From contig OZ245843.1 of NCBI GenBank assembly GCA_965228875.1, positions 2,648,616 through 2,712,615 on the forward strand: a DNA stretch of 64,000 bases. Direction: 5' to 3'. This document shows, one piece after another, positions 11,536 through 37,006 of this stretch (positions within the stretch are counted from its first letter, which is position 1; every line of letters starts with the position of its first letter). The notes under the pieces were generated by a model that did no database searches, had not been told where the DNA came from, and saw only the letters and a program-made list of their open reading frames with translations. The translations under genes were made by a program, and so were the position numbers. This DNA is from Thalassobaculaceae bacterium (lineage in GTDB: Bacteria > Pseudomonadota > Alphaproteobacteria > Thalassobaculales > Thalassobaculaceae).

Positions 11536-12696
11536 GTGCCTCTGCAGGATGTGACCATCGTCGACACCACGCTGCGCGAGGGTGAGCAGTTCGTGCGGGC
11601 CGACTTCTCGTCCGAGGCGAAGCTGGAGCTGGCCCGCGCGCTCTGCGGGTTCGGCGTGCGCTTCCTCGAGGTCACCTCCCCCGCGGCCAGTCCGCGTTCG
11701 CGCCGCGACGCCGAGCGGATCGCCGGTGCCGGGCTGCCGGCCACCGTCGCCGCCCATATCCGCTGCCACCGCGACGACGTCGACATCGCTCTCGATTCCG
11801 GGGTCGGGGCGCTGAACATGGTGATGGCGATCTCGCCGATCCTGCGCCGCGCCAGCCACGGCCGGGCGATCCCCGACGTGGTGCGCACCGCCGCCGAGAT
11901 CGGCGAGTACGTGCGCAGCCGCGCGCCGGACATCGTGCTGCGCTTCTCCAGTGAGGACGCGTTCCGCTGCCCGCTGAACGACCTGCTGAACGTCTACCTG
12001 CCGCTGTCGGAGCTGAAGCTGTTCGACCGGCTGGGCATCGCCGACACCACCGGGGCGGCGACGCCGGACCGGGTCGGCGAGGTGGTCGGCCTGGTGGCGC
12101 GGCTGACCGGGACGCCGGTGGAGTTCCACGGCCACAACGACATCGGCTGCGCCATCGCCAACGCTCACGCCGCCGCCGTCGCCGGCGCCGGCTACATCAA
12201 CACCACCGTGCTCGGCATCGGCGAGCGCAACGGCATCACCTCGCTGGAGGGGCTGATCGCGGTGCTCTACGCCGCCGATCCGCAGCGCACGCGCGCCGCC
12301 TACGACCTGCCCGCCCTGCCCGCGCTCTGCGCCCGCGTGGCCGCGCTCGCCGGGGTCGCGGTGCCGTTCAACGACGTGCTGGTCGGCGAGACCGCGTTCA
12401 GCCACAAGGCGGGCCTGCACACCAAGGCGGTCTACAACGACCCGCGCGCGTACGAGGCGCTGGACCCGGCCGATTTCGGCCTCGAGCGGCACGTGGCGAT
12501 CGGCCACCGGCTGACCGGCTGGAACGCCATCCGGGTGCGCTCGGAGGCGCTCGGCTACCGGCTGCCGCTGGCGGTGCTCAAGGACATCACCCGGCGGATC
12601 AAGGAGACCGGCGACGGCGGCGACCTCGCGGTCGAGCAGGTCGACGCCCTGATCGTCGCCGCGGCGGTCGAGGCCGGCTGCGCGGCCGAGGGGTAG
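11536..12696 (+). CDS. Homocitrate synthase-like enzyme (alpha-aminoadipate-pathway type, DRE-TIM family)
   Basis: DTTLREGEQF, HIRCH, RFSSEDAFR, FHGHNDIGCAIAN, GIGERNGI, HKAGLH and RLTGWNAI; no C-terminal LeuA regulatory domain. Confidence 0.8.
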   Translation: MPLQDVTIVDTTLREGEQFVRADFSSEAKLELARALCGFGVRFLEVTSPAASPRSRRDAERIAGAGLPATVAAHIRCHRDDVDIALDSGVGALNMVMAISPILRRASHGRAIPDVVRTAAEIGEYVRSRAPDIVLRFSSEDAFRCPLNDLLNVYLPLSELKLFDRLGIADTTGAATPDRVGEVVGLVARLTGTPVEFHGHNDIGCAIANAHAAAVAGAGYINTTVLGIGERNGITSLEGLIAVLYAADPQRTRAAYDLPALPALCARVAALAGVAVPFNDVLVGETAFSHKAGLHTKAVYNDPRAYEALDPADFGLERHVAIGHRLTGWNAIRVRSEALGYRLPLAVLKDITRRIKETGDGGDLAVEQVDALIVAAAVEAGCAAEG

Positions 12697-12733
12697 ACCG
12701 CGGCGATTGGAGCGCCGGACCGGACCGCCCCCG

Positions 12734-15145
12734 TCAGGCCGACGCGTTCTCCCGCATGGCGAAGGTGGCCAGCCCATACAGCAGGGCGAAGCCGGCATAG
12801 GCGATGCCGAGCGCCGCCAGCGCCGCCGGATTGTCCGATGCCGCCACCAGGATCAGGCCGACCAGCGCCGGGCCGGAGATGTGGCCGATCCGCTCGAGGA
12901 TCCGGTAGACGGCGATGGTGCGGTCGCGACCGACCGCGCCCGCCGCACCGCCGGCCGCCACCCGGGCGATGATGGGAGCGGCGATCAGCCCCTGCCCGGC
13001 ACCCAGAAGCCCGACCGACAGGGCGATCGCGGCGCCGGTGGCAATGGGCACCGGCACGCCCGCCAGGCCGTCCTGCGCGCTTGCCGCCAGACCGGCCAGC
13101 CAGCCCGGCACCAGCGCCGAGGGGACGCCGTCGCCGGCGCCGGTGATCAGGCCGAGTCCGGCCATGCCGAGGGCCAGCGCCACCATGCCGGCCACCAGCG
13201 CCCGGTCGGTCGAGCCGAACAGCGCGACCAGACGCGGCGCGACCGCCGTCACCAGATAGGTGACGATGGCGAACACCATCAGCGCCTGTCCGACCTCGTC
13301 GTCGCCGTAGCCGGCGCGGTGCAGCACCAGCGGCATGGCGAAGATCGCCACCCCGGCCAGGGCGAATTTCGACGTCACCCCGATCATCGTCAGCAGGGCC
13401 AGGAAGTCGGGGAAGACCAGGACCCGACGCAGGTCGCCGAGGAGCCGGACCGGCTGCGGGTCGTGTTCCTTGACCAGGGACGGCAGGGCGAGGCGGCTGT
13501 AGACCACCGCCAGCAGCGCCACCAGACCGGCCACGGCGATGAAGTCGGTGTCGTCCATGAACACCGCGACCAGACCGCCGATGCCGGTGCCGACGATCAG
13601 CCCGCCGTTGTAGCCGAGCACCTGCGCCGCCGCCGCCTTCACCCGCTGTTCGGGCGCGACGATCTCGAAGGCGTAGGCCTGCACGGTGATGAGCAGCAGG
13701 CCTTGGCCGATGCCGCCGAGCGCCCGGCCGACGCAGAGCGCCCAGAACGTGTCGACCAGCCCGACCAGGAACAGTCCGGCGGCGACGGCCGCGCCGCCCC
13801 CCATGAACAGGGTGCGCAGGTTGATCCGCTCGGTCATGAACGAGGCGGGCACGAGCGCGCCCGTCAGGCCGATGAAGAACAGGCTGAACGGCAGCGACAC
13901 CATGCCGGACGGCAGGCCCTCGACGACCACCCGTTCGTGGCTCAGTTCCGGCAGGACCGAGAGGACCAGGGAATCCGCGAGGATGCCGAGGAAATACGCC
14001 GGTTGCAGCACCGCCAGCCCCGCCTCGCCCCGCGGCCGGTCGCCGGCGGCCGCCAGCGACTGCGACCGCACCGCGCGGAAGAAGATCATCGAGAACAGCA
14101 TGCAGCCGAAGAACAGCGCGACGAAGTTGCGGGCGCCGGCGCCCAGCGCCTCGACCACCACCGACAGCGGCAGTTCCGCCGTCAGGGTCAGCTCGCTCTC
14201 GGGATCGACCGGCTGGGAGAACGCCAGGGTGCCGTCGCCGGCATGGGCCGCCTCGCGGTCCGCCTCGGCCAGGCGGAACAGGACCGCCCCCTCGCGTTCC
14301 AGGGTGATGGCGGCGATCTGCGGGTTGATCCGGCGGTAGTCGGCCAGCGCATCCTCGATGCCGCTCAGCGCTTCGATCGGAATGCCGATCTCGGTCACCG
14401 CCGAGAGCCGCGCCGCCATCGACCGCGCCAGTCCCTCGGCCTGTCCCTCCGTCCCCTTGCGATAGAGGTCGAACATCACGGCGACCAGGACCGCCATCAT
14501 CAGCACCATGACGGTCACGAAGGCCGGCGTGACCCAGCGCCGCGCGGTCTCCCGGCCGCGCCCCGCCAGTCCCGTCTCGACCGCCGCGAACAGCAGGAAC
14601 AGGACGCCGGCGGCCGCGAAGACCGGTAGGAAGGCCGAACCGACCTCGGTCCGCAGCGTGGCCTCATCCACATACAGCAGCAGGTCGCCGACCGTGCCGA
14701 ACTTGTCCTCGACCGGCAACCGCAGGATCCGGCCGCCGCCGGTCTCGGCGATGGTTCCGTCCTGAAGCCCCCGGTGACCGTGGAACGCGCCGGCCTCAGT
14801 CTTCAGCTTTGCCGTACACCCGTCGCCGGCATCGGCGCCGCGAAGGGCAAGACAGGCCACCGCTCCCTCGCCGCCGGCACTGACGACGGCGACGGTGTGG
14901 ATCGACTCGTCGACGCCGCCGAGTTGGCGGGCCCGGCGCTCGAAACCGCTGAACTGGTCGAGCGGAAGACCGCTCTGGGCGAAATAGTTGAGCGAATGCT
15001 GCAGGGTGGCACCGAGTTGGATCACCCTCTGGATCCGCATCTCGGTATAGACGCGCGTCGCCTCGCCGAAGCCGACATAGGCGAACATCAGCAGGCTCAG
15101 CCCCACCAGCGTGACGCCGGGCAGGATGCCGACCAGACGCTTCAT
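12734..15145 (-). CDS. MFS transporter fused to an N-terminal membrane/periplasmic sensor-like region
   Basis: 803 aa; the C-terminal ~400 aa contain about 12 hydrophobic helices with GRALGGIGQG; the N-terminal half has two TM-flanked extracytoplasmic segments. Confidence 0.8.
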   Translation of the reverse strand: MKRLVGILPGVTLVGLSLLMFAYVGFGEATRVYTEMRIQRVIQLGATLQHSLNYFAQSGLPLDQFSGFERRARQLGGVDESIHTVAVVSAGGEGAVACLALRGADAGDGCTAKLKTEAGAFHGHRGLQDGTIAETGGGRILRLPVEDKFGTVGDLLLYVDEATLRTEVGSAFLPVFAAAGVLFLLFAAVETGLAGRGRETARRWVTPAFVTVMVLMMAVLVAVMFDLYRKGTEGQAEGLARSMAARLSAVTEIGIPIEALSGIEDALADYRRINPQIAAITLEREGAVLFRLAEADREAAHAGDGTLAFSQPVDPESELTLTAELPLSVVVEALGAGARNFVALFFGCMLFSMIFFRAVRSQSLAAAGDRPRGEAGLAVLQPAYFLGILADSLVLSVLPELSHERVVVEGLPSGMVSLPFSLFFIGLTGALVPASFMTERINLRTLFMGGGAAVAAGLFLVGLVDTFWALCVGRALGGIGQGLLLITVQAYAFEIVAPEQRVKAAAAQVLGYNGGLIVGTGIGGLVAVFMDDTDFIAVAGLVALLAVVYSRLALPSLVKEHDPQPVRLLGDLRRVLVFPDFLALLTMIGVTSKFALAGVAIFAMPLVLHRAGYGDDEVGQALMVFAIVTYLVTAVAPRLVALFGSTDRALVAGMVALALGMAGLGLITGAGDGVPSALVPGWLAGLAASAQDGLAGVPVPIATGAAIALSVGLLGAGQGLIAAPIIARVAAGGAAGAVGRDRTIAVYRILERIGHISGPALVGLILVAASDNPAALAALGIAYAGFALLYGLATFAMRENASA

Positions 15146-15195: not shown

Positions 15196-16311
15196 TCAGC
15201 CGTCCTTCTTCGGCGCGGTGGCAGCCTGGTGCGAGTCGCTCGGGAAATCATTGAGTTTCGGCTCGATCTCGCGCTGGATCCGGCGCAGATCGCGGACGTG
15301 CCGGGCGTTGTTGCCGTCGTCGAGTTCGACCGCCCGGCGCAGCAGGTCGGCCGCCTTCACCTTGTTGCCGTACTCGGCGAGATGCATCCCGTAGGCGTGA
15401 ACGATACGCGGGAAGTCAGGAGACATGCGGTAAGCCTCCTCGTACTTCTTCGTCGCCTCCTTGATCTTGCCCTGCGCCATCAGCGATTTCGCCCAATAGA
15501 CGATCGCCTCCGGGTAGTGCGGGTCGATCTCCAGTGTCTTCTTGAAGCGGCCGATCGCCTCGTCGTGCATGCCCATCTTCGCCAGCGACTCGCCCCAGCG
15601 CATCATCGGGCGCGGAAACGTCGGGTCCAGCGCCAACGCCTGCCGGTTCTTCATGATCGAGCCTTCGAGATCACCCTCGAAGAACAGGACGTGCGCCCAC
15701 AGGGCGTAGACCCAGGGCAGGTTGCGGCGCGGCGCATGGACCAGCGCGTGGTCGATCGAATTCTTGGTCAGGGTGAATTCGCCCGTCGGGATCTCGTGGC
15801 GGAAGTGGTAGACCGCGATGAGGTAGGGATCGAGTTCCCCCAACAGGGCGATCGCCGCCTCGCGCAGCAGGCCATCGACGTCGTCCTTGCTGCCCCGCTT
15901 CTCCACGATGAAGTGCCAGTACTCGGCGGACTGGCCGCGCACCCGAAGGATCAGTTCGTCGCCATCCTCGACGAACTCCCCGGAGAACGAATACGGCAGG
16001 AAGCCGAGAGCGACCTGGGTCGCGCGGATCGGCTGGGCCAGGCCAAACCAGTCGCTCAAGGCCTCGACCGACTTGGCCTGGGCGGTCTCCTCGGCGACGT
16101 AGGCACCGCGGTTCGTCCCCGCCTCGTCGCTGACCCGCGCGATGCTGTCCGACAGCATGGTGGTCGCCACCTCGGCGGAATAGCCCTGATCCTCCATGGA
16201 GGGCGGGACGGATATGTTCTGGATGACGATGGTGTCAGGACTGATGAAATAGGACACCGCGAAGAACGCGCCGACCGCCAACACCGGAATCGACAGAAGA
16301 TTATCCAGCAC
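15196..16311 (-). CDS. Membrane-anchored tetratricopeptide repeat protein
   Basis: N-terminal TM helix; C-terminal TPRs (ALALDP, LEIDPHYPEA, AYRMSPDF). Confidence 0.8.
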   Translation of the reverse strand: MLDNLLSIPVLAVGAFFAVSYFISPDTIVIQNISVPPSMEDQGYSAEVATTMLSDSIARVSDEAGTNRGAYVAEETAQAKSVEALSDWFGLAQPIRATQVALGFLPYSFSGEFVEDGDELILRVRGQSAEYWHFIVEKRGSKDDVDGLLREAAIALLGELDPYLIAVYHFRHEIPTGEFTLTKNSIDHALVHAPRRNLPWVYALWAHVLFFEGDLEGSIMKNRQALALDPTFPRPMMRWGESLAKMGMHDEAIGRFKKTLEIDPHYPEAIVYWAKSLMAQGKIKEATKKYEEAYRMSPDFPRIVHAYGMHLAEYGNKVKAADLLRRAVELDDGNNARHVRDLRRIQREIEPKLNDFPSDSHQAATAPKKDG

Positions 16312-16452: not shown

Positions 16453-17631
16453 TCAAAAAACCCGCTGTCCGAACGCCACGACCTGGCGACCGTCGAGATC
16501 GTAGACGAAGGTCGACGATTCCAGGAACGAGAACGGAATCTTGATGCCGACCCGGTCCGCGATCAGGAAATTGATCGCCAGGTCCGGCGGCGACACCGTG
16601 CCGACCGGCAGCGTTCCCGGATCGGCCTCGCCGGTGACCACCCGGACCGCATAGACCGCCGACAGGGTCAGCGCGCTGGTCAGGTTCACGCCGATCGACA
16701 GCAGCGCCGACTCCTCGCCGGCACGCACGATGTCCGGCAGCATGGAGATCACCGGCAGCTTTCCGGCGTGGCGATTGATCTGGGCGATTCTCTCGTAGAC
16801 CGCGGTCGACCCCGTGACCAGTAGGAGGCTGCGCGCTCCGTCCGGGTCCAGCGCCCGCATCTCGGCGATCGCCTCGGGCAGCCTTGCGTCCAGTTCCTCG
16901 GCCGCCGAGCCGCGCCCCTGAACGGTGATGTGGACGATGTCGAGGCCTAGCGCGTCCGCCGCCCGAACAAGCGGATTCACCTGGGTGAGAACCGCGCTCG
17001 CGTTGTCTTCCGAATACAGCAGCCCGATGGTCGAGAGGCTGGGAATCATCCGCCGCAGATAGGCGACCAGGGTTCCGGTCTCTACGTTGATCGAGGTGTA
17101 GGCGATGTTGGTCCCGCTGCCGGCCGGATCGTCCAGGTGACCGGAGGCGATCGGATCCTTCGACGCGCTCGTCACCGCCGGAATCGTGTGGCCGCTGTGG
17201 TGTTCGCGCAGGAAGGTCGTGGCCGACGATCCGGCGGACATGATGAGATCGACCGGCTGGCCGTAGGCCCAGTGCAGGGCCTCCTGCGCCACGCTCTCGT
17301 CGCCGTCGTAGTACCAGATGTCGAACCGAGCCGGCACCTGACGGCGGGCGAAGACCTGCAGGATCGTGTTGACCGCCAGCGTATAGGCCTCGACGGAGCG
17401 GCTCGGGATCAGGATCATCACCCGCTTCGACGCGGCCCGGCCGGACGGAACGGCGACGTGGCGGGCGGTGTCGCCGCCATCGGTATCGACCTCATAGGCC
17501 GCCAGCGTCGCCGGGTCGTAGCTCAGCCAGTCCAGGACGGGCCGGTCGGCGGCCAGCGCCGCGGCGTTCGCCCCGGCGGCAAAGCCGAGGGCGAGAAAAA
17601 TCAGAAGTCGGGCGGCCAGTGTCGTCATCAT
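16453..17631 (-). CDS. ABC-type substrate-binding protein (ABC_sub_bind-like), no cognate ABC permease adjacent
   Basis: Signal peptide; GTNIAYTS, IGLLYS..N, GEADPGTLPVG and AINFLIADRVGIKIPFS motifs. Confidence 0.75.
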   Translation of the reverse strand: MMTTLAARLLIFLALGFAAGANAAALAADRPVLDWLSYDPATLAAYEVDTDGGDTARHVAVPSGRAASKRVMILIPSRSVEAYTLAVNTILQVFARRQVPARFDIWYYDGDESVAQEALHWAYGQPVDLIMSAGSSATTFLREHHSGHTIPAVTSASKDPIASGHLDDPAGSGTNIAYTSINVETGTLVAYLRRMIPSLSTIGLLYSEDNASAVLTQVNPLVRAADALGLDIVHITVQGRGSAAEELDARLPEAIAEMRALDPDGARSLLLVTGSTAVYERIAQINRHAGKLPVISMLPDIVRAGEESALLSIGVNLTSALTLSAVYAVRVVTGEADPGTLPVGTVSPPDLAINFLIADRVGIKIPFSFLESSTFVYDLDGRQVVAFGQRVF

Positions 17632-17645
17632 TCCGTCCGCCACCC

Positions 17646-18629
17646 TCAGTAGGGCGCGCCGCCTTCGACCGTCAGCCGGTGCATGACGCGCGCCTCGTCC
17701 GGCGGCGTGAACGTCGCCGAATGGATGATCGACGCATTGTCCCACGCGATCAGATCGCCCTTGCGCCACTTGAAGCGCAGCACCCGTTCGGGGGCCGTCG
17801 CATGGTCGCAGATCCGGCGCAGCAGCGGCAGGGCGTCGGCCTGCTCCATGCCCTCGATGCCGACCATCATCTCCTCGTTCAGATAGAGCGCCTTGCGTCC
17901 GGTCACCGGGTGGGTGCGCGCGATCGGGTGGGCCTGCTCGGGGACGGCATTGCTCTTCTTCTCGGTCGGCGACGGCGCCTCCGCCGCCGCTTCGGCCTCG
18001 CGCTTGCGTTTGAGGGCCTCGATCTCCGCCTTCTGCTCGGCACTCAGGTTGCGCTCTCCGGAGAACACGAACTCCTTGCGCTGATATCGGTGGATCGCGC
18101 GCCGGCCGTCGATCGCCGCCCTGGTCGCGTCGTCGAGCCGGTCGTACGCGTCGTACATGTCGGCGAACAGGGTGTCGCCGCCGCGCGCCGGCACCTCGAC
18201 CCCGTGCAGCAGGGTGACGCTGCTCGGCTTCTCGACGAACGTGCTGTCGCTATGCCAGTGCGTACCGGCCCCGTCGCGACCGATCGGCTTGCCGTCCTTG
18301 CGGACGTTGGACAGCACGTAGATCTGCGGGTGCTCCGGGTGATTGTAGGCGCTGATGAAGAACGGCTCGATCGGCCCGAAGACCTCGGCGAACCGGATGA
18401 AACCCTGTGGCGGGATGTCCTGGCCGCGGATCGCGATCACCTGATGACGGTAGAACAGAGCACGGACACGCTCGGCCTCCGCTGCGGTGAGATCGCGCGA
18501 CAGGTCGAGCCCGGTGATCTCCGCGCCGAGAAACGGCGACAGCGGCACCGCCCCGATCCCAGCCGGATCCGCGCCGGCGGGCACAGCACCGTCCGATACC
18601 GCCTCATTCCGAACCGCTTCGTTCCGCAT
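17646..18629 (-). CDS. TauD/TfdA-family Fe(II)/2-oxoglutarate dioxygenase
   Basis: GAEITGLDL, HWHSDSTF (HxD), GGDTLFAD, HPVTGRKALY, WDNASIIH and RVMHR; RBS before ATG 18629. Confidence 0.9.
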   Translation of the reverse strand: MRNEAVRNEAVSDGAVPAGADPAGIGAVPLSPFLGAEITGLDLSRDLTAAEAERVRALFYRHQVIAIRGQDIPPQGFIRFAEVFGPIEPFFISAYNHPEHPQIYVLSNVRKDGKPIGRDGAGTHWHSDSTFVEKPSSVTLLHGVEVPARGGDTLFADMYDAYDRLDDATRAAIDGRRAIHRYQRKEFVFSGERNLSAEQKAEIEALKRKREAEAAAEAPSPTEKKSNAVPEQAHPIARTHPVTGRKALYLNEEMMVGIEGMEQADALPLLRRICDHATAPERVLRFKWRKGDLIAWDNASIIHSATFTPPDEARVMHRLTVEGGAPY

Positions 18630-18844
18630 CGCCCACCTCCCGTATCGGCCGCCGGGAAACCGCACCGCGACCGCCGCGGCCGATTGCACCCTTCGGCCAG
18701 GAATGATTCTATGGCTTGCCCTTCGGACATCGCCCCAGCGGGGCCGCCCGTCGGGACAGTATCTAGCACGAACCCGGCCGCCGGGTCGCGGGGTCAAGTG
18801 ACTTCGCACGGCGAACGCCGCGCAACCCGCGCCCTGGAGCCGTC

Positions 18845-20578: not shown

Positions 20579-20954
20579 TTCGCCCCCCTTCGACCTCCGG
20601 CCGGTCCGGCCGATGGCGACCGCCGATTTTCCCGGCTCTATCGGTAACCATACCATATCGATGGCTGTATCACCGCCGACCTCGGCTGCGACATTTGGGC
20701 CCGCGCATCCCACCCCGTCGGACCCGAGCGCCGGGCGCGCCTAGCCTGACACCTTCGAATCCGTGATCGGGAATACCGACCCGACCTCCCAAAGGCTTGA
20801 AAACACCCGTCTTCGATCCTACCGTTCTGCCAATTGGGTGGCAACCGACGGCGGCGGCGCGGGCCATAGACAGCGCCGGGACGCGGCTTGCGCGGACCAT
20901 GCCGGATGGCCCCGCCGAGAGAGATTTCGTTGCCGCACCGCGGAAGGCCGTCCC

Positions 20955-21479: not shown

Positions 21480-21483
21480 TGCC

Positions 21484-29807: not shown

Positions 29808-30422
29808 GTGGAACCCGGTGAACTGCTCGCAGCGCTCGGTGCCCGCCTGGTCGGCGGCATCGTCCTGGTCGCTCTGCCCGTGGCCGGATATGTGGTTGCG
29901 AACGCGGTCTGGCGCGTCCACGCCCTTCACTTCTTCCACCGGGTCACCCTGCTGTCGAAGCTGGCGATGGCGACCGGCATCCTGCTCGGCATCGGCGTGA
30001 TCGCCGCGTCGGACGCCCGGCCGTCCTTCGACATCAACGATATCCTCGCCGCAGGCGGAGCCTGGGACCTGCCGTGGCGGAAATTCCTCGCCGATATCGG
30101 CAATCCGGGCCTCTACGACTACGCGCCGCTGTGGATACACCTGACGACCGCCGAACTCGACGGCCCGTGGGTGGTCTACGGTGTCGCGGTCTCCGCGGCC
30201 GGTATCGCGAGCGCCGTCGCCCTGCTCGCGATGCTTCGCGGCGAGGAGTTCCTGATCGGCGTCGTCGCCATGCTGTACGAGATCCTGGTCATGCAGGCGC
30301 TCACCATGTACGCGGTCCTTCTCCTGGCCTACGCCCTGTGCACGTTCAATTTCTGGACGGTGCTGATCGCCCTGATGGTCCTGCAGTATTACAGGTACGT
30401 TAAACATCCGGCCGGGCACTAG
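29808..30422 (+). CDS. Hypothetical integral membrane protein
   Basis: About five hydrophobic segments; lies between the two Mic60-like genes. Confidence 0.7.
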   Translation: MEPGELLAALGARLVGGIVLVALPVAGYVVANAVWRVHALHFFHRVTLLSKLAMATGILLGIGVIAASDARPSFDINDILAAGGAWDLPWRKFLADIGNPGLYDYAPLWIHLTTAELDGPWVVYGVAVSAAGIASAVALLAMLRGEEFLIGVVAMLYEILVMQALTMYAVLLLAYALCTFNFWTVLIALMVLQYYRYVKHPAGH

Positions 30423-30522: not shown

Positions 30523-31902
30523 ATGGTCGTGACGGACGAGGACACCGGCGGCACCGCCAAGACGACGAAGCGCAAGTCCGCCTCGACGGCCTCGCGCTCG
30601 ACCTCCAAGCCCCGGGCGAGAACCGGATCGGCCAAGACAAGTGCCTCCAAATCCGGCGCCACAAAGGCCGGTTCTGCAAAGACCGGTGCCTCGAAGACCG
30701 GTGCCGCGAAGACCGGGTCGGCCAAGGCCGCCTCTACGAAGGCCCCTGAGACCAAGGCCCCTGAAACCAAGACACCCGAGACCAAGACACCTGAGACCAA
30801 AACACCGGCGACGCAGGCCGCCGCCGCCAAGTCGGCAGCCAAGTCCGCCGCTCCCCCGACACCGGAAGCTTCGGTGTCGGACGCCCCCAAGACCGAACCG
30901 ACCAAGACCGACTCCCCGCAACCCGAAACGCCGAAGGCTGCAGCCCCGATGACCGACGCTTCGAAGACTGAGACCCCGAAAACGGATGCTCCGAAGACGA
31001 CGCCGCCCCAGGCTGCCGCGGCGTCCTCCGGCCCCACGACAGGTGGCGGCACGGGTGGATCCGGCAGCGGCGGCGGCGGAGGCTCCTACCCCGCGCCGGC
31101 CGTGGCACCCCAGCCCGCGAGCGGAGGCCTGTTCAGCATGCCGATGGTCCTCAGCCTCGCGGCGATCGTGATCGCGATCCTGATCCCGGTAATCAACCAG
31201 AAGGCCTACGAGCCGGCCATTCAGCCGACCGACATCGCGGCGCTGGAGACGACCCAGGCCGAGCTGGCGGCGTCGGTGGCCGAGATCAAGGCGAGCATCG
31301 ACGCGCTGTCCGTTCAGCAGGACACGCTGCGGAGCTCGATCTCGGCGGTCAGGATTCCGGCCGTGATGATCGCCGCCTCCGACCTGCGGGCCGCGATCGA
31401 GTCCGGCGAGGAATTCGCCGAGCCGCTAACCCTGTTCGAGGCTATCGCCGGCGAGAATGAGGCCGTTGCGTCGGTCTACGAACTCCGGCCCCTGGCCTTG
31501 GGCGGCATCCCGACGGTCAAGGAACTGCAGGCGGCGTTCGGCAATCTGTCGCACGAGGTGGTCGCCAGCTATCAGACCGTCGCCTCCGAAGGCGACCTCG
31601 CCAAGCGGGTGTCAGAGACCATGGCCAATCTGACGGCGGCGACCACGCGGCTGCGTTGGCGCCTGGACGGCACGACCCCGCCGGAAGGGGACTCGCCCCT
31701 GGCGGTGATGGCGCGCGCGGAGATCGCCGCCGCCAAGGCCGATTTCGATGCGGTTGTCGCGGAGATCGAGACCCTGCCGGAAGACCTCAAGGCAATCGCC
31801 GCCGGCTGGATCGAGCAGGTGCAGGCGCAGAAACAGGCGACGACGGCGATCGAGGATCTCGACCTGTTCATGATCGAAACCCTCGCCAGTGCGCGGAAGT
31901 AG
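30523..31902 (+). CDS. Mitofilin/Mic60-like (COG4223) membrane protein B with a Lys/Ala/Thr-rich repetitive N-terminus
   Basis: One TM, coiled coil, then LRAAIESGEEFAEPL, GGIPTVKELQAAF, AVMARAE...ADFDAVVAEIETLP, AGWIEQVQA. Confidence 0.78.
   Translation: MVVTDEDTGGTAKTTKRKSASTASRSTSKPRARTGSAKTSASKSGATKAGSAKTGASKTGAAKTGSAKAASTKAPETKAPETKTPETKTPETKTPATQAAAAKSAAKSAAPPTPEASVSDAPKTEPTKTDSPQPETPKAAAPMTDASKTETPKTDAPKTTPPQAAAASSGPTTGGGTGGSGSGGGGGSYPAPAVAPQPASGGLFSMPMVLSLAAIVIAILIPVINQKAYEPAIQPTDIAALETTQAELAASVAEIKASIDALSVQQDTLRSSISAVRIPAVMIAASDLRAAIESGEEFAEPLTLFEAIAGENEAVASVYELRPLALGGIPTVKELQAAFGNLSHEVVASYQTVASEGDLAKRVSETMANLTAATTRLRWRLDGTTPPEGDSPLAVMARAEIAAAKADFDAVVAEIETLPEDLKAIAAGWIEQVQAQKQATTAIEDLDLFMIETLASARK
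30630..30810 (+). repeat. Coding 15-bp (pentapeptide) tandem repeats KTGAA/KTGSA and KAPET/KTPET
   Basis: aaggcccctgagacc aaggcccctgaaacc aagacacccgagacc aagacacctgagacc..., preceded by aagaccggtgcc units. Confidence 0.8.
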
Positions 31903-32001: not shown

Positions 32002-32655
32002 CTAAGCCTCGGAGAAGAGGACCGGCTCGATCTCGCGGGCGAGGTTGCGAATCTCCAGCGCCGCGCGGTTCTTCGGCGCGAGGCTGAGCGGAGAGGCGCC
32101 GTGATAAGAGGCCTCCTGGAACACGACCCGGTCGCCGATCCTGGCGTTCAGCGGCCGCAGGCCAAGCTGTTCGAGGTTGCGTTCCGTGTGGCGGACCACG
32201 GTCGTCATCCGCTTGACCCGATTGAGCACGGAGTGAAACGGGATGTCGCGGCGCGTCAACTTGCTGGCGCTGTCGATCACCTGCTTCATCTTGGCCGCCT
32301 CGAACAGGCTGGCCTCGTCGGGCATGACGGGGACCAGCACCATGTCGGCGACGCCGACCGCATAGACCATCGCCTGGTTGCCGAACCCGGCGGTATCGAC
32401 GATCACGATATCCGCCTCTTCGCCGAGCGCGTAAACGCTCTCGATGATCTCGTGCTCGTTGGAGTTGGCGCTGACGGAGATGTCCTGGAAGCCGGTCCCG
32501 CTCTTGCGGGCCCAGCGCGCCATCGCCTCGTTCGGATCGGTATCCAGAATGGCCACCGTCTTGCCCTGGTCGCGCCAGTAGGAGGCCAGGGCGGCCCCGA
32601 TGGTCGTCTTTCCCGTTCCGCCTTTACTGGTGGCTACCACAAGGATACTGGCCAT
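32002..32655 (-). CDS. Short ParA-family ATPase (type Ib-like), no parB adjacent
   Basis: ATSKGGTGKTT, LDTDPN, IVDTAG, VLNRV and RVVFQEA. Confidence 0.9.
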   Translation of the reverse strand: MASILVVATSKGGTGKTTIGAALASYWRDQGKTVAILDTDPNEAMARWARKSGTGFQDISVSANSNEHEIIESVYALGEEADIVIVDTAGFGNQAMVYAVGVADMVLVPVMPDEASLFEAAKMKQVIDSASKLTRRDIPFHSVLNRVKRMTTVVRHTERNLEQLGLRPLNARIGDRVVFQEASYHGASPLSLAPKNRAALEIRNLAREIEPVLFSEA

Positions 32656-32783
32656 GACCGACAAGACTCTCGTGCAGTGGAACTGCAATGATGGCCGACG
32701 CGTCCTGCCGACGATAGCGCGATGTTGCCCGGCGTCGGGATTTCCGCTTTAGTGCGCCGGTGTCCTGGCAGGCGGATCCTCTG

Positions 32784-33377
32784 ATGAACGCTCGGAAATC
32801 CTCGAACAACCGCAGGTTCCTGCGGAGTACGGTCTGTGTAGCCGCGCTGGCGGCGGCACTCGCCGTGGCCCAGCCGACGCCCGCCAGGGCCGGCCTGGTC
32901 AGCGACGCGCTGGGCACGATGGCGCGCTGGGTATCGGGAATCGAACAGATCATCACCGAATGGTTCGACGCGACCATCGGCACGATCAAGGTGATGGACC
33001 GCGAGGAGAGCGCGGCCCGCGCCGTCGCCGAGATGGCGTTGCAGGATCCGACCACCCTGGCCGAGATCGCCGGCCGTGCCGGGTTCCGTCTCTCCACTGT
33101 CAGTTTCGCGGACGGCGGCAGGCACGTCGACGGTCTGAGCTTCGCCTACGAGCAGATGATCCCGCGGGAAGGCCGCCTCGCTCTCTGGCGCGATGTGCTC
33201 GAGGTCGAGGACACGCCCTTCCGTCCGGAGATGGAACTGGTCCGTCTGCTGCTGAACGCCTCCGACATGCAGGAGAACCGGGCTCCGGCGGGTCTCACGC
33301 TGGCCGGCGTCGCGATCGCCCTCGACGACGACACCCTCTCCGCCTCATGGCGGTTCGAGCCGCTGCCGACCGAGTAG
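32784..33377 (+). CDS. Exported protein with a probable Tat signal
   Basis: NRRFL followed by a hydrophobic stretch and ARA cleavage site. Confidence 0.65.
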   Translation: MNARKSSNNRRFLRSTVCVAALAAALAVAQPTPARAGLVSDALGTMARWVSGIEQIITEWFDATIGTIKVMDREESAARAVAEMALQDPTTLAEIAGRAGFRLSTVSFADGGRHVDGLSFAYEQMIPREGRLALWRDVLEVEDTPFRPEMELVRLLLNASDMQENRAPAGLTLAGVAIALDDDTLSASWRFEPLPTE

Positions 33378-33407: not shown

Positions 33408-34199
33408 CTATCGCATCACGTTGAGGAAGGCCGTCGGACTGATCGACGCGTCTCCGATGAACGGATAGCTCAGCTGCAGCACCATCAGGAGGTGCAGCAT
33501 GAGGAACGACGTGAGCAGCGCCGACATGAACGTCTGCGACATCACGTTCACCGTCCCAAAGAACCACGGGAACATGATCGCCAGCAGCGTCCCGCTGATC
33601 AGCACCGCCCAGACCAGGGCGATCAGCGAGCGCGACACCGTCGTCAGGCGCAGGGCCCGGTACTCGTTGATCTGACTGACCCAGTCGACGGTGTTCTGCT
33701 GCAGCGATTTCTGCGCCTCGGTGGCCGGTTCGACCCGCATGAAGGTGTCGTTCATGTCGGCCAGGCGGGTCGACACGTCCGGATCGGCGAGACCGTAGCT
33801 CATCACCCGCCATTCCTTCTCGACCACCGTGCGGGCGTATTCCTGAACGGCACGGCGCATCGCCGCCCGGTCGTCCGCCTGTTGCGGCAGATCGTAGGTG
33901 TCGGCGGCATAGGAGAGCGAGGCCAGCGTCGCCGCCTCGCGCTGGGCGTTGGTCTGCGCGGTGGTGAAATGGTCGAAGGCCCCGATCATGGCGAGGCCGA
34001 GCGTCACGGCATAGACCTCGCCGAGAAAGCCGAACTTGGCACCGCCGACCAGGTTGTTCGGCTCCAACTCCAGCGGTGTGAAAACCGAGTTGACCAGCCA
34101 TGACCCCAGAATGGACAGCAGGATGCCGACGGCTATGGCGAAGGGTATCGCCGTCGTCAGAGGGATGCTCGCGAGCTGCAGACCGATATCGTAGGTCAT
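33408..34199 (-). CDS. DUF4239 (bestrophin-like) membrane protein
   Basis: GEVYAVTLGL, AQREAATL, YARTVVEKEW, R.LR and QLSYPFIGDASISPTAF pattern with 2+2 TM helices. Confidence 0.75.
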   Translation of the reverse strand: MTYDIGLQLASIPLTTAIPFAIAVGILLSILGSWLVNSVFTPLELEPNNLVGGAKFGFLGEVYAVTLGLAMIGAFDHFTTAQTNAQREAATLASLSYAADTYDLPQQADDRAAMRRAVQEYARTVVEKEWRVMSYGLADPDVSTRLADMNDTFMRVEPATEAQKSLQQNTVDWVSQINEYRALRLTTVSRSLIALVWAVLISGTLLAIMFPWFFGTVNVMSQTFMSALLTSFLMLHLLMVLQLSYPFIGDASISPTAFLNVMR

Positions 34200-34244: not shown

Positions 34245-34655
34245 TCAGTGATGCTCGCCCTCAAGCTCGCCCTTGCCCGCGTGGACCTCGCCGTCCCTGG
34301 TCCTGATGCGGATGACAGCATCTACCCCATCCGGCAGGTGATCGTCGAGCCGGCCGATCAGCGCACCCTCTGCGACCACCAGCGACACCCGGGTCGGTCG
34401 GCCGCCGATCAGCAGCACCACGTCGCCGCCGGTGGCCTCGCCGGTCAGGTCCTTGCCCTCATGTTCGAACAGCCGAACCTCAAGCTCCTCGTCATGAACC
34501 ACGATCTCGGCGTCATACGGGCCGACGGCGATGATCTGCCCACCGTTCGGCCCCTCATCGTGCTCGCCATGGGCGTGCTGAGCCAGGGTGGGAGAGGCGG
34601 CAGCGACGGTGCCGGCGACGAGGGCGGCTGCCACGAGATCACGAACGAGACGCAT
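34245..34655 (-). CDS. Exported His/acidic-rich putative metal-binding protein
   Basis: Signal peptide, then QHAHGEHDEGPNGGQ; C-terminal GEHH. Confidence 0.7.
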   Translation of the reverse strand: MRLVRDLVAAALVAGTVAAASPTLAQHAHGEHDEGPNGGQIIAVGPYDAEIVVHDEELEVRLFEHEGKDLTGEATGGDVVLLIGGRPTRVSLVVAEGALIGRLDDHLPDGVDAVIRIRTRDGEVHAGKGELEGEHH

Positions 34656-34930: not shown

Positions 34931-36067
34931 ATGTCGGCGCGCGCCCCCTTGGATCTGGCTGCCTACGATAAGGTACAACAGGCGCTCGAACGCGCTCTGG
35001 CCGATCCGCTCGCTACCAGTTCCGCCGCGCGGGCCGCGGCGGGCTGTGCCGACGGCCATCGCGAAGCCAGTCGGCGGGCGCTCGCCCAGGGTGGCGCCCT
35101 GCGCCGGGCGGCTGAGCAGGGTCGGCTCCGTGTCCGTCAGTGCCTGCGGGACACGGCCCTTCCCGCCATCGACCGGTTCTTCGCCGGCCTGGCCACACGA
35201 TCCTGGCAGGACGATGGCGCCAGCCTCTCCATCGAGGACGTGACCCCGCAGGAGGCGGCCGTCCTGCTTCGGGCCCTGGCCGAGTGGGAACGCTCGGGCT
35301 CGACCGATACCGAGGTGAACGCCCTGGTGTCGAAGGTCTGCACCAGGATGACGGCCGATGCGAAGACCTGCGTCGACCGCTTCAAGGCGGAACAGTCGCC
35401 GGAGGATGCCCCGGACTATCGGGCCGTCGCCACGACCCTGGTCATGTTCGAGGCGATGATCTATCTCGCCGCCCATCTCCGGCGGGACGCCGCCGCCGCC
35501 GAGATCGGCCGCCAGCGCGACCACTACGCCAAGACCGCCCTGCTCGCCGCGCTGTCGGTGATCCAGCGGGCGGAAGAGACGACGGACATGTTCGTGCATT
35601 TCGACATCGCCGCCATGCTGGTTTCGGTGGAGAACGTGGTCGTCGTCATCTCCCGCACCATCGCCGTCATCGACCGCGAGCGCGACCAGTCCCACCCCTT
35701 CGTCGAGACGGTCAGCGAGCACGTGGTCCGCGATTTCGCCAACGGCCTCAAGCGTCTGGCGCCCACCTATCTGCGCATGCTGCGCAACGCCACGGCGCGC
35801 GACAATGCCGTGCCGCAGTTCGCGTTCTCGGTGGTCCAAGTTCTCGTGCAGCTCGCCCGTCTGCTTCGCATCCTGCACCACCTCCTTCAGGACCCGGCAT
35901 TGGCGGCGGGAGCGGACGAGATCGGCGCCGACGTCGGCGCGATGGGCGAGCGTCTGCGCCAGATCGCCGCCGGCGATCCGGATCAGCTCGGGCGCCTGGA
36001 CGGGGCCATTGACGCGCTGGGTTCCACGCCGGAAATGACGCGCCCCGTGCCGGCGGCGCCCGCCTGA
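34931..36067 (+). CDS. Hypothetical all-helical protein
   Basis: 378-aa GC3-biased ORF; stop overlaps the next start (TGATG). Confidence 0.65.
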   Translation: MSARAPLDLAAYDKVQQALERALADPLATSSAARAAAGCADGHREASRRALAQGGALRRAAEQGRLRVRQCLRDTALPAIDRFFAGLATRSWQDDGASLSIEDVTPQEAAVLLRALAEWERSGSTDTEVNALVSKVCTRMTADAKTCVDRFKAEQSPEDAPDYRAVATTLVMFEAMIYLAAHLRRDAAAAEIGRQRDHYAKTALLAALSVIQRAEETTDMFVHFDIAAMLVSVENVVVVISRTIAVIDRERDQSHPFVETVSEHVVRDFANGLKRLAPTYLRMLRNATARDNAVPQFAFSVVQVLVQLARLLRILHHLLQDPALAAGADEIGADVGAMGERLRQIAAGDPDQLGRLDGAIDALGSTPEMTRPVPAAPA

Positions 36068-36615
36068 TGTCCTCGCGGAACCGTCCCGCCCTGCTCGGCG
36101 CGGCCCTAACCGGACGCATCGCCGCAGCGCTCGACCGCCTGTGCCGGGGAATCCGGCGACCCGCCGCCGCGCCTGCGACATCGCCGGCGACGCTCCATCT
36201 CTCGGCCGCCAACCGGATCGGGGAACTCGACCGGCTCGCAACGGTGATCGGGGAATTCGCCGAGGCCAATAGCCTGCCGCAGCGTCAGGCCATGCACCTG
36301 GACCTGGCGATCGAGGAGATCGTATCGAATGTCATCAAGTACGGCTTCGAGCCGGGTGACGAGCGGGACGACGCGGTCGACATCACGCTCGTCCTCGACG
36401 GCAGGCGGCTCGCCATCAGGATCCGCGACCGCGGCCGGCCGTTCGATCCGCTGGCCGACGCGCCGGAGCCGGATACCGATGCCGGGGTGGCCGACCGCAG
36501 GATCGGCGGCCTCGGCGTGCATTTCGTGAAGCGGCTGATGGCCGACCTGCGCTACAGACGCGAGGGCGACAGCAATGTCCTGGAGATGGTGCTGGACCTG
36601 AACGGGCCGTCATGA
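36067..36615 (+). CDS. Anti-sigma factor / Ser kinase (RsbW/SpoIIAB-like, HATPase_c_2)
   Basis: LAIEEIVSNVIKYG, IRDRGRPFDP and IGGLGVHFVK. Confidence 0.88.
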   Translation: MSSRNRPALLGAALTGRIAAALDRLCRGIRRPAAAPATSPATLHLSAANRIGELDRLATVIGEFAEANSLPQRQAMHLDLAIEEIVSNVIKYGFEPGDERDDAVDITLVLDGRRLAIRIRDRGRPFDPLADAPEPDTDAGVADRRIGGLGVHFVKRLMADLRYRREGDSNVLEMVLDLNGPS

Positions 36616-36673
36616 CGCCGACACCAGGACCGGTGTAGACTCGCCCTCCGGCCGACAGAAGGAAAGCAGAGCA

Positions 36674-37006
36674 ATGCAGATCGAGACCGCGACCCATGGT
36701 GACCTGCTGGTCATCGCGCCGAAGGGACGGGTGGACAGCAACACCTCGCCGGCTCTCGAGGCCGCGCTGCTGGAGCGGATAGAGGCGGGCGACACGCGGG
36801 TGAGCATCGATTTCTCCGGCGTCGACTACATCTCGAGCGCCGGGTTGCGGGTTCTGCTCATGGCAGCGAAGCGCGCCGGCTCGGCCAAGGGGGCGTTCTC
36901 CATGCACGCGCTGTCGCCGCAGATCCGCGAGGTGTTCGAGATCAGTGGCTTCCTGTCGATCCTCAAGGTCCATGACGGGCTGGAGGACGTCCTGGCGAGC
37001 CGCTGA
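36674..37006 (+). CDS. STAS anti-sigma factor antagonist (RsbV/SpoIIAA-like)
   Basis: GRVDS, DFSGVDYISSAGLRVL and VFEISGF. Confidence 0.92.
   Translation: MQIETATHGDLLVIAPKGRVDSNTSPALEAALLERIEAGDTRVSIDFSGVDYISSAGLRVLLMAAKRAGSAKGAFSMHALSPQIREVFEISGFLSILKVHDGLEDVLASR

Follow-up and report, generated by a model that had tools for sequence, protein, structure and literature searches.

Mic60 is the one subunit of MICOS, the system organizing contact sites and cristae in mitochondria, that descends from the alphaproteobacterial ancestor of mitochondria, and in bacteria its roles have so far been placed in photosynthetic intracytoplasmic membranes and, via paralogs, in magnetosomes, which are positioned by an actin-like protein. 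Paralogs of mic60 and orf52 lie within the magnetosome island of Magnetospirillum, and their loss leads to fewer, larger magnetosomes (bioRxiv 10.1101/2022.06.14.496148). Here we describe a gene cluster on contig OZ245843.1 of a Thalassobaculaceae bacterium, located between tRNA-Lys and rodA in a 64,000-nucleotide stretch of DNA that was analysed as a whole (the window), in which two Mic60-family proteins are encoded together with an orphan ParA-family ATPase, a fusion of an ATP-binding cassette (ABC) ATPase with an MlaE-type permease, and a carbonic-anhydrase-like (CA-like) domain. The interval holds one co-inherited functional module of about twenty genes.

Several described systems can be set beside this cluster. 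Canonical Mic60 combines an N-terminal transmembrane (TM) segment, a coiled coil and a C-terminal mitofilin domain, all of which are shared by the cluster copies; these differ from it in their long N-terminal tails, in a gene context without an Orf52-like partner, and in forming a branch of their own in the Mic60 tree. The magnetosome island is similar in being a large accessory cluster that unites Mic60 paralogs with a tetratricopeptide repeat (TPR) protein, small membrane proteins and transporters, but positioning here would be effected by ParA and not by an actin-like protein, and MamA, taken as a proxy (other Mam families were not searched), scored above its cut-off in none of the five distant cluster-bearing genomes, which gave generic TPR matches only. 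With the McdA/McdB system of carboxysomes the cluster has in common an orphan ParA-family ATPase beside a presumed adaptor with a charged N-terminus, and a putative carbonic-anhydrase function tied to the cargo; the presumed adaptor here, however, is a transmembrane Mic60 paralog rather than a soluble McdB, the ParA retains the signature lysine (KGGTGKT), and the Pfam scan of the cluster gave no match for a shell, RuBisCO or carboxysome gene. The likeness to the Mla pathway lies in the MlaE-type permease and its ATPase and in the MlaA gene found within the cluster at three distant loci, whereas the fusion of the two transporter components, the presence at the MlaD position of a protein (u370) unrelated to MlaD by profile, and the location of the canonical Mla genes elsewhere set the two apart. 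Finally, one C-terminal domain resembles the iota-carbonic anhydrases (COG4875 / COG4337 types), matching the structures 3h51_A and 7c5x_A with the HHSS motif aligned, but it lacks a signal peptide, shares its polypeptide with a scaffold domain and is encoded within a membrane-protein cluster.

Judged from these sequence comparisons, the whole appears to fit none of the Mic60-Orf52 pair, the Mla operon, the magnetosome cluster, the carboxysome/McdAB set and the PADLOC defence systems. A search of full-text literature, outside which subscription journals and closed supplements lie, yielded no description of the cluster or of a Mic60-ParA combination, no paper on DUF6524 and only unrelated papers on DUF4239, in agreement with a preceding interpretation made from the DNA alone (hereafter the sequence-only reading), which had not recognised the combination as a described system. 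As a system the cluster looks undescribed, although each part belongs to a known kind; the function proposed for it is putative.

A co-inherited gene cluster beside rodA

Genes were called by the frame bias of third-position G+C (GC3) and scanned against Pfam and NCBIfam, which showed that the gene content listed in the sequence-only reading is largely present. Conservation was followed in a sample of 41 relatives and in a class-level sample of 401 alphaproteobacterial genomes, and synteny was assessed by tblastn of all window proteins against the fetched neighbourhoods. The protein u370 (protein names are those of Table 1) was found in 12 of the 41 relatives, namely in 6 of the 10 same-genus genomes, in five other genera of the family, and in none of the 16 genomes from other families. 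A ParA ortholog (E <= 1e-50) is present in exactly these 12 genomes, and the u148 domain in 13, that is, the 12 with u370 plus G027. Same-genus loci keep the entire gene order from HCS to His199, and in other genera (G012, G019, G020, G016; loci L030-L039) the full order is either retained or reshuffled as blocks with the linkage kept. In G012 the segment TauD-SBP-TPR-MFS-HCS-Best-His199 lies on the opposite side of u205, the gene set of G020 is spread over two contigs, and in G019 the block ParA-u205-Best is located 4.3 Mb away from the main cluster and yet is retained. Since protein identities are 35-70%, near-clonality of the cluster genomes is excluded, and the co-occurrence together with the linkage across genera rules out that the homologs are scattered without conserved synteny.

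The extent of the unit is delimited by a genome of the same genus that lacks the core (G008). Its locus reads g00, MFS, SBP, TauD, AAA18, RsbW, STAS and RodA in this order, without HCS, without TPR (47 nt are left between MFS and SBP) and without the whole block from Gz1 to u378, which amounts to three separate co-deletions. Because this genome, devoid of the core, keeps MFS, SBP, TauD, AAA18, RsbW and STAS, the specific unit consists of HCS, TPR and the segment 19727-36067; MFS, SBP, TauD and AAA18 are habitual neighbours, and RsbW and STAS, which adjoin rodA in G008 and which no cluster locus of another genus was seen to have as neighbours, are bystanders. The interval of 11536-37006 assigned to the cluster in the sequence-only reading was thus too generous on both sides, and the anti-sigma/STAS pair that it counted among the members exists (36067-36615 and 36674-37006) but falls outside the specific unit.

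Beyond the closest relatives, a profile search for the ABC/MlaE fusion returned 19 true loci (one genome per species), the closest of which are named as Thalassobaculum or Thalassobaculaceae. Loci from lake metagenome-assembled genomes (L041-L043) encode the fusion at 35-38% identity along with a Mic60-like gene and a ParA (47%), and L042 additionally holds a u148-domain protein, DUF6524, a second Mic60-like gene, u323 and m204. Reduced modules surround divergent DUF6524 copies in distant families: that of G420 comprises SBP, TPR, MlaA, three DUF6524 genes, a Gz1-like gene, m204, u148, ParA and a Mic60-like gene, that of G080 TPR, two DUF6524 genes, m204 and u148, and those of G235 and G059 u370, ABC/MlaE, DUF6524 and m204. 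The DUF6524 family exceeds its cut-off in 19 of the 401 class-level genomes, and the ParA subfamily finds matches (E <= 1e-40) in 2 of them. The system is rare and was found only in some Alphaproteobacteria. Among candidates that were rejected, the locus of Azospirillum halopraeferens (L040) encodes a homolog of ABC-MlaE (41%) but, over a distance of 10 kb, none of the remaining cluster genes, and the high-scoring DUF6524 genes of G025, G326, G065, G287 and G134 have no cluster around them.

Mic60 paralogs and the adjoining ParA

The two proteins called mitofilin-like in the sequence-only reading, here cc586 and Mic459, are true Mic60 paralogs. In profile-profile comparison with hhalign each matches canonical Mic60 with a probability above 99% (Table 1), and the cc586 and Mic459 families match one another (98.4%, E 9.8e-15); profile methods were needed because BLASTP of cc586 against Mic459 gave no significant C-terminal match (E 3.4). 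Against Pfam Mitofilin (PF09731), Mic459 of the window scores 17.3 bits, below the cut-off of 27.4, and cc586 of the window has no match. Within the families a Mitofilin match (E <= 0.1) was obtained for 9 of the 10 Mic459 members (best 3.9e-10) and 1 of the 7 cc586 members, and several orthologs exceed the cut-off (40.5 bits in G012, 32.5 bits in G003, and 35.2 and 29.2 bits in further ones). The canonical Mic60 of the genome (58.1 bits) is encoded 1.2 Mb away (G000:C1:3895178) and is followed by a HemY_N/Orf52-like gene; the canonical context hemC-hemD-mic60-orf52 does not recur in the cluster, where neither copy has a HemY_N/Orf52-like neighbour. Because the Orf52-like neighbour occurs only at the former copy, the cluster copies are paralogs and not the canonical gene. 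All 10 same-genus genomes possess a canonical Mic60, and a second Mitofilin match occurs only in the cluster-bearing ones. A tree built from the 230 C-terminal residues of nine canonical and 18 cluster rows places the two groups on separate sides (support 87/86), a division to be read with caution in view of several long branches, and the cc586 rows form a clade at 100/99 support. One further Mic459 ortholog, missed in the tblastn table, was recognised by direct reading of L028.

Each paralog has a single strong hydrophobic segment, at residues 138-156 of cc586 (in the numbering of the long open reading frame) and 206-224 of Mic459, preceded, unlike in canonical Mic60, by a tail of about 115-200 amino acids. 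In cc586 an N-terminal peptide (MANRPRLPNVDPEDL...) is followed by a Gly/Ser-rich linker, the TM segment, a coiled coil, which coiled-coil families match in the Pfam scan, and the mitofilin-like C-terminal domain; the peptide MANRPRLPNVDPEDLAKLASQYPGS, the invariant positions of which begin at M22, is unchanged in seven sequences that are only 31-64% identical overall. Mic459 consists of a basic low-complexity N-terminal tail of about 200 residues, one TM segment, a short coiled coil and the mitofilin-like domain, and its tail is rich in Lys, Thr and Pro, begins ...TAKTTKRK... and contains a nearly invariant R17. By the positive-inside rule, the N-terminal tails of both paralogs would be cytoplasmic, and the coiled coil and mitofilin domain periplasmic.

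The orphan ParA was likewise verified: the KGGTGKT deviant Walker A motif, which conforms to the ParA/MinD-family pattern KGGxxK[ST], is seen in the translation, and the protein also matches the Pfam VirC1 and BcsQ models and reaches 144 bits against NCBIfam ParA_partition (cut-off 180). Mic459 adjoins the ParA gene in every locus except G019. In Thalassobaculaceae the two genes are convergent, and in L041, L042, L043 and G420 a Mic60-like gene lies directly 3' of parA on the same strand, after a gap of about 40-90 nt, a position that is the place of a parB gene. The Mic60-like protein of G420 (P0001) starts with MVKRTKKKS, has one TM segment and matches canonical Mic60 at 80.9% (E 1.2e-5). 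Partners of ParA/MinD ATPases stimulate the ATPase via short basic N-terminal peptides, and the genes are adjacent. As such partners use basic N-terminal peptides and adjoining genes, the presumed point of contact with ParA is, by analogy, the cytoplasmic tail of each Mic60 paralog, and gene adjacency makes Mic459 and cc586 candidate ParA partners.

Two further features were observed around these genes. In L042 and L043 a PBP_like_2 (phosphate-binding-protein-like) gene is located directly 3' of the Mic60-like gene (L042:2443-3570 and L043:1865-3001, both on the minus strand), and Thalassobaculaceae have no such gene at this position. A scan of the cluster for promoters and terminators gave counts at the level of shuffled sequence, with a sole notable site, a G+C-rich hairpin at 31933-31956 that is followed by a T-run; it occupies the gap between Mic459 and parA, which are convergent, and is likely to act as a bidirectional terminator.

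Carbonic-anhydrase-like, lipid-transport and other members

The CA-like domain is the C-terminal part of N-SnoaL and belongs to the CaMKII-AD-like NTF2 group. Its homology to iota-carbonic anhydrase, which the sequence-only reading had suspected from the HHSS motif, is established by the family profile, which matches 3h51_A over the full domain (E 6.1e-29) and the iota-CA 7c5x_A (E 4.3e-10), with HHSS aligned to the HHSS of both. T235, Y250, H320, S321 and S322 are nearly invariant in the family, and T235 and Y250 align with T and Y of 3h51. According to PMC8132391, 3H51 is 38-42% identical to the characterised iota-CAs of T. pseudonana and B. territorii, the iota-CA active site is lined by Thr, Tyr, His and Ser (Thr106, Tyr124, His197 and Ser199 of all2909), and most bacterial relatives have a signal peptide. 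The near-invariant Thr, Tyr, His and Ser of the family are candidate counterparts of these catalytic residues. N-SnoaL has neither a signal peptide nor a hydrophobic segment.

The N-terminal half of N-SnoaL is a paralog of the stand-alone protein u148. Both the fusion and the existence of a paralog had been foreseen, with the correction that the paralogy resides in this N-terminal domain and not in the CA-like one. Foldseek found no match for the u148 fold at E <= 1e-3, the best structural comparisons (Z 6.8; ENT, TIC110 and TerB-like units) are at noise level, the profile search against PDB returned nothing, and the ESM leads to TerB/ENT score 0.77-0.80. A full scan of 1.84 billion protein representatives assigned 217 of them to the family at E <= 1e-3. 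In a domain census of 26 of the best 150 representatives (22 long ones and four others), 11 of the 12 C-extended proteins carry a CaMKII_AD/SnoaL/DUF4440 domain; among the 10 N-extended ones, five match Pro_CA_2 or Pro_CA, two of them above cut-off, two contain TIR_2, two have weak other matches and one has none. In L042 the u148-like domain is fused to Pro_CA_2 (beta-CA-like; 34 bits, cut-off 30) and not to the iota-like domain. Because two unrelated CA-like folds sit on one scaffold, we argue that CO2/bicarbonate conversion is probably part of the system, and the carbonic-anhydrase link of the sequence-only reading is strengthened. The two TIR_2 domains (79.8 bits in P0132 and 41.3 bits in P0136) are N-terminal and replace the CA-like domain.

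The DUF4239 protein, a family since renamed and here called Best, and the small His-rich exported protein His199 accompany these genes as had been reported, the latter with nine His residues and with its start now taken at an inner signal peptide. Orthologs of Best (47-70%) are linked to ParA-u205 in other genera, where orthologs of His199 (31-78%; no Pfam family) adjoin Best.

The anticipated MlaF-MlaE fusion was also borne out. Among the three MlaE copies of the genome, that of ABC-MlaE diverges most (58.9 bits versus 264 and 255 bits); the fusion is 60-81% identical in the family and 35-51% in distant loci. The stop codon of u370 overlaps its start, and u370 lies directly upstream of the fusion wherever tblastn detected it; the fusion loci without a detected u370 are L040 and, with sequence that starts at or inside the fusion, L042 and L043. 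The best PDB profile hit of u370 has an E-value of 0.078, Foldseek gave none at E <= 1e-3, with weak rows to the MlaD chains 6zy2_A, 7ch8_B and 7cha_B at E 0.3-0.6, structure comparison returned only helical bundles (Z <= 7.6), and the ESM Atlas neighbours are 'hypothetical protein' clusters only. Its position suggests that u370 is a stand-in for MlaD, not a demonstrated homolog. At three loci the cluster includes an MlaA lipoprotein gene, which scores 113.3 bits in L042, 79.2 bits in L043 and 161.7 bits in G420; the Thalassobaculaceae cluster versions have none, and the single MlaA gene of this genome lies elsewhere, as do its two canonical MlaE and two MlaD genes. A canonical MlaE/MlaD set is found at G000:C1:2725892-2727690, about 13-15 kb past the right end of the window and about 55 kb from the fusion. 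In the unrelated reduced versions of G420 and G080, genes for an RND pump of the AcrB type and for a long adaptor resembling HlyD adjoin DUF6524, TPR, m204 and u148 (L148:13435-19056 and L150:3153-8667), and they may occupy the position that MFS has in the window.

Starting from tRNA-Lys (9418-9493), the gene order is a Trypsin_2/Trypco2 pair, HCS, the minus-strand genes MFS, TPR, SBP and TauD, the AAA_18 protein, Gz1 and Gz2, the operon u238-u370-ABC/MlaE-[scaffold + iota-CA-like], DUF6524 and u323 (minus), the operon Gz3-u148-cc586-m204-Mic459, the convergent parA, u205, the bestrophin-like and His-rich exported proteins (minus), u378-RsbW-STAS, and rodA (37007-38164), which is followed by PBP2, MreC and MreB. 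The interval contains at least five transcription units on both strands. The G+C content of the window is 66-74%, and the cluster has the normal G+C content of the genome. Two sequencing runs (X19 and X20), guessed to be RNA but possibly DNA, contain short contigs of a near-identical strain scattered over the cluster, from which levels are not readable.

On the left side of the interval, HCS scores 362 bits against TIGR02146 (cut-off 413.55), adjoins MFS and Best in another genus (L168, 74%) and is missing from the core-less congener locus (L169). MFS is 68% identical in G008 and is adjacent in G012 (54%); its N-terminal extension has three hydrophobic segments and no family match, and is 68-75% identical in congeners, including one without the cluster. 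The MFS/SBP pair of the sequence-only reading consists of genes that are both present and are not adjacent, the TPR gene lying between them. The membrane-anchored nature of the TPR protein was confirmed by a hydrophobic segment at residues 1-19; it is syntenic in G012 and G020 (57-69%), and G420 and G080 encode homologs with 26-27% identity (E 1e-31 to 1e-40) in the vicinity of their DUF6524, m204 and u148 genes. It was rejected as MamA (NF040959; 34.6 bits versus a cut-off of 200) and as a paralog of Orf52 (E 0.044). SBP is syntenic in G012 and G020 and 80% identical in G008, and an ABC_sub_bind protein is also found beside TPR, MlaA and DUF6524 in G420. TauD moves in a TauD-SBP-TPR block in G012, AAA18 is syntenic in G020 and G016, and both are kept in G008; these two genes and HCS had been omitted from the earlier inventory.

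The three small exported proteins Gz1, Gz2 and Gz3 had been described as GxxxG-rich, a claim that does not hold: they contain 4, 6 and 3 GxxxG motifs, respectively, versus 2.8, 5.3 and 2.0 expected from their Gly content, no Pfam glycine-zipper family matches them at E <= 0.01, they have no detectable similarity to one another, and their glycine-zipper enrichment is compositional. Gz1 has orthologs of 45-82% identity in other genera, tblastn conservation covers residues 44-178 (approximately) of the Gz2 frame and begins at about residue 100 in that of Gz3, and Gz3 contains hydrophobic segments. Orthologs of u238 are 28-78% identical, a 4-nt gap separates its gene from u370, and Pfam, NCBIfam and PADLOC gave no match for it. 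DUF6524 is kept in all cluster versions, with up to three copies (G420). Hydrophobic segments of u323, a protein without a Pfam or NCBIfam family, are at residues 7-25, 218-236 and 230-248, and its orthologs are 27-58% identical, including that of L042 (30%). The gene m204 is kept in the Thalassobaculaceae loci, G420, G080, G235/G059 and L042, and the ParA-u205-Best block in G019, G020 and G012. None of the unnamed families scored above cut-off in NCBIfam, and the assignments of u323 to PuhC (17.6 bits) and of Gz3 to Spy (17.4 bits) were rejected as far below the respective cut-offs.

At the right edge, u378 overlaps the RsbW gene by 1 nt and is absent from G008. In the same-genus genomes G006 and G009 about 6 kb of other DNA lies between His199 and u378 (loci L012/L013 to L024), and u378 there stays with RsbW-STAS, not with the cluster. 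At the left edge, directly after tRNA-Lys, a trypsin-like peptidase (Trypsin_2, 36.8 bits) and a Trypco2-domain protein (57.9 bits) are encoded as a pair at 9557-11382 (-), in the stretch of lowest G+C of the window (0.606 for 10001-12000); the pair has the appearance of a minor insertion, a conflict or mobile island that is not related to the cluster. Elsewhere in the window, a permuted (two-piece) tmRNA with the tag peptide ANDNYAEARLAA is encoded at 59433-59783 (+); two-piece permuted tmRNAs are typical of Alphaproteobacteria, which is consistent with the class-level placement.

Table 1. Genes of the interval between tRNA-Lys and rodA, with window coordinates
Name	Position	Strand	Description	Evidence
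HCS	11536..12696	+	homocitrate/isopropylmalate-synthase-like enzyme	HMGL-like 196.7 bits, HCS_D2 96.1 bits
MFS	12734..15145	-	MFS transporter with N-terminal extension of ~340 aa	MFS_1 76.3 bits, residues 383-678
TPR	15196..16311	-	membrane-anchored; unassigned N-domain (~1-200) and TPR repeats	TPR_2 and related Pfam families
SBP	16453..17634	-	exported ABC_sub_bind-family protein, start at MMTT... signal peptide	Pfam 52.7 bits
TauD	17646..18632	-	TauD-family Fe/2-oxoglutarate dioxygenase	TauD 215.2 bits
AAA18	18845..19726	+	P-loop kinase-like protein	AAA_18 27.5 bits, below cut-off 29.4
Gz1	19727..20104	-	small exported Gly/Ala-rich protein	N-terminal hydrophobic segment; no Pfam family
Gz2	20177..20578	-	small exported Gly/Ala-rich protein, from about residue 45 of open reading frame 20177-20713	no Pfam family
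u238	20763..21479	+	soluble protein, conserved core ~58-185; first gene of u238-u370-ABC/MlaE-CA operon	
u370	21484..22596	+	N-terminal anchor, small beta domain, long helical bundle	model pLDDT 77.8
ABC-MlaE	22593..24179	+	fused ABC ATPase and MlaE-type permease	ABC_tran 88.3 bits, MlaE 56.3 bits (cut-off 22.5)
N-SnoaL	24261..25265	+	u148-like domain (residues ~34-165), Pro-rich linker, iota-CA-like NTF2 domain ending HHSS	
DUF6524	25321..25746	-	small polytopic membrane protein	PF20134 101 bits, cut-off 27
u323	25820..26791	-	membrane protein, N-terminal TM segment, C-terminal Gly/Ala-rich hydrophobic pair	
Gz3	26964..27413	+	exported, C-terminal Gly-rich hydrophobic region; part of open reading frame 26646-27413	no Pfam family
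u148	27590..28036	+	stand-alone scaffold domain, two tandem three-helix repeats, conserved C-terminal SRRW(F/Y)N motif	model pLDDT 88.8
cc586	28092..29789	+	Mic60 paralog	hhalign 99.3%, E 1.9e-20, 297 columns versus canonical Mic60
m204	29808..30422	+	polytopic membrane protein, several hydrophobic segments	no Pfam/NCBIfam match
Mic459	30523..31902	+	Mic60 paralog	hhalign 99.2%, E 2e-19 versus canonical alphaproteobacterial Mic60 alignment
ParA	32002..32655	-	ParA-family ATPase, short form without N-terminal DNA-binding extension	Pfam CbiA, AAA_31 and MipZ above cut-offs
u205	32760..33377	+	exported protein, hydrophobic segment 20-38	no Pfam/NCBIfam match
Best	33408..34199	-	bestrophin-like (PF14023, formerly DUF4239) membrane protein, putative anion channel	153.8 bits, cut-off 32
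His199	34245..34655	-	small exported His-rich protein, start at MRLV... signal peptide within open reading frame 34245-34844	9 His
u378	34931..36067	+	fast-evolving protein	49-53% orthologs in same-genus loci only
RsbW, STAS	36067..37006	+	RsbW-like anti-sigma kinase and STAS antagonist	HATPase_c_2 82.3 bits, STAS 64.4 bits

What the cluster may build

We favour, at a probability of roughly 40%, a general model in which the cluster encodes a membrane-organising, inner-membrane-anchored machine. The Mic60 paralogs would shape the membrane or make contacts, and the dedicated ParA would, by analogy with other members of its family, probably bind their cytoplasmic tails and thereby space or localise the complex. 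In a second arm, the MlaF-MlaE-type transporter would move lipids together with a private, translationally coupled u370, to which the distant versions would add the outer-membrane lipoprotein MlaA. The cytoplasmic u148 scaffold, free or fused to the iota-CA-like domain (or, in a distant version, to a beta-CA-like one), would constitute a third arm that handles CO2/bicarbonate, accompanied by Best, the bestrophin-like protein and putative anion channel, and by the exported His199, and DUF6524, m204, u323, Gz1-3, u205 and TPR would be structural membrane or exported proteins. The product of such a machine would most likely be a spatially organised, specialised inner-membrane domain or invagination.

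A number of observations weigh against this model. The relatives in which the cluster was traced are kin, and identical phyletic profiles overstate their independence; G019 keeps ParA with no Mic60-like neighbour. Profile comparison of u370 with the two MlaD proteins of the genome gave probabilities of 0.2% and 0.5%, and general scans, which included no specific search for MlaC, found no MCE/MlaD, MlaB or MlaC in the cluster; because MCE/MlaD is missing, the evidence for a role in lipid transport consists of the MlaE domain and the MlaA neighbours. The latter, together with the RND/HlyD neighbours, would fit an envelope-spanning system without any internal structure. The u148 scaffold is not specific to CA-like domains, since 2 of its 10 N-extended relatives carry TIR domains. 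The CA-like domain of N-SnoaL is devoid of the signal peptide that, according to PMC8132391, is typical of most bacterial relatives, and the same text leaves carbonic-anhydrase activity unconfirmed even for 3H51, the closest solved relative.

MICOS contacts the outer membrane in mitochondria, the Mla pathway transports phospholipids, and ParA/MinD-family ATPases such as BcsQ, VirC1 and CpaE localise envelope machines, for example to the pole. An envelope system built along these lines, in which the Mic60 paralogs make inner-outer-membrane contacts, MlaE-ABC/u370 (with MlaA elsewhere) move phospholipids, ParA merely localises the assembly, and the exported Gly-rich proteins, TPR and SBP are periplasmic or outer-membrane parts, is doubtful but has to be taken seriously. 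The MlaA genes of L042, L043 and G420 and the AcrB- and HlyD-type genes beside the reduced versions of G420 and G080 are what it would predict, but the Thalassobaculaceae versions contain no MlaA, the genome already encodes two canonical MlaE and two MlaD proteins, and a cytoplasmic, scaffolded CA-like enzyme and its swap to another CA-like fold are left unexplained. The matches of ParA to VirC1 and BcsQ speak in its favour, and so do the weak Foldseek rows linking u370 to MlaD chains, a resemblance that profile comparison does not support. Many members have signal peptides or single N-terminal anchors, a topology compatible with this arrangement that nevertheless cannot tell the periplasm from a periplasm-derived lumen.

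Such a lumen is the essence of a further reading, a new bacterial organelle bounded by lipid and derived from the periplasm, with a neck formed by the Mic60 paralogs, a private Mla-like lipid pump, carbonic anhydrase and the bestrophin-like channel loading bicarbonate (possibly to the point of carbonate mineral), and partitioning by ParA via the Mic60 tails; we consider this unlikely. Rather less probable still is a compartment dedicated to the storage of carbonate or ions, the possibility raised in the sequence-only reading, in which the CA-like enzyme would make bicarbonate, the bestrophin-like channel would pass it and cations would join it as a mineral inclusion, with the His-rich and Gly-rich exported proteins and an MFS-exported homocitrate-type carboxylate controlling nucleation. 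CA-like domains of two folds are tied to the cluster, the bestrophin-like and His-rich proteins are linked to ParA-u205 across genera, and HCS shares the loss of the core in G008 and, in G012, is linked to MFS and Best, all of which would suit such storage; however, Pfam and NCBIfam revealed no transporter for Ca2+ or any other cation in the cluster, the GxxxG content of Gz1-3 is that expected from composition, with no glycine-zipper match in Pfam, and each step from carbonic anhydrase to mineral would be an inference. PMC11773610 names no molecular determinants of intracellular Ca-carbonate formation for Pseudomonadota, from which the cyanobacterial marker ccyA is missing, and the niche for a carbonate system is accordingly open. 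The known carbonate-forming alphaproteobacteria are, in the same text, magnetotactic Azospirillaceae, whereas MamA stayed below its cut-off in all five distant cluster-bearing genomes; nor do we know of any report of inclusions in Thalassobaculum from the full-text literature on the genus, which was looked at in part.

A membrane-associated stress or conflict system, of the Ter type or TIR-bearing, in which u148 would act as adaptor or sensor and the effectors would be the ABC and membrane proteins, is very improbable. The TIR_2 domains of the two N-extended u148 relatives, one weak vWA-TerF-like match and the trypsin/Trypco2 pair just upstream point in this direction, as do leads from u148 to TerB (ESM 0.77; 2ou3, Z 5.7), which are, however, below any meaningful threshold. 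PADLOC yielded only generic ABC-ATPase and coiled-coil matches, for 2 of the 20 proteins scanned, and was rejected as a source of an assignment; the cluster has the normal G+C content of the genome, and its core of Mic60 paralogs, ParA and MlaE is without counterpart in known defence systems. A chance neighbourhood of accessory genes with no common function, to which the at least five transcription units on both strands and the persistence of MFS, SBP, TauD, AAA18, RsbW and STAS without the core might seem to point, can practically be dismissed in the face of the identical phyletic profiles of three genes of unlinked families in the 41 relatives, the linkage kept through rearrangements across genera and partly across families, and the three separate co-deletions in G008.

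To our knowledge, no internal membranes are known in the host bacterium. If the cluster did serve carbonate formation, it would provide a genetic basis for intracellular carbonate in Pseudomonadota, a question left open in PMC11773610, and if it did build an organelle, a free-living bacterium would have an equivalent of the crista-like compartment, equipped with a segregation system of its own. At least ten of the member families are without annotation, and even a modest phenotype would name them. The cluster links two further Mic60 paralogs with a dedicated ParA, an Mla-type transporter and carbonic-anhydrase-like enzymes, and, if the membrane-organising model is true, it would put Mic60-based membrane shaping to a new use, would be the first case of a ParA system with a Mic60-family membrane protein as cargo adaptor, and would make the link of membrane contact or curvature with lipid supply and with the chemistry of inorganic carbon genetically tractable.

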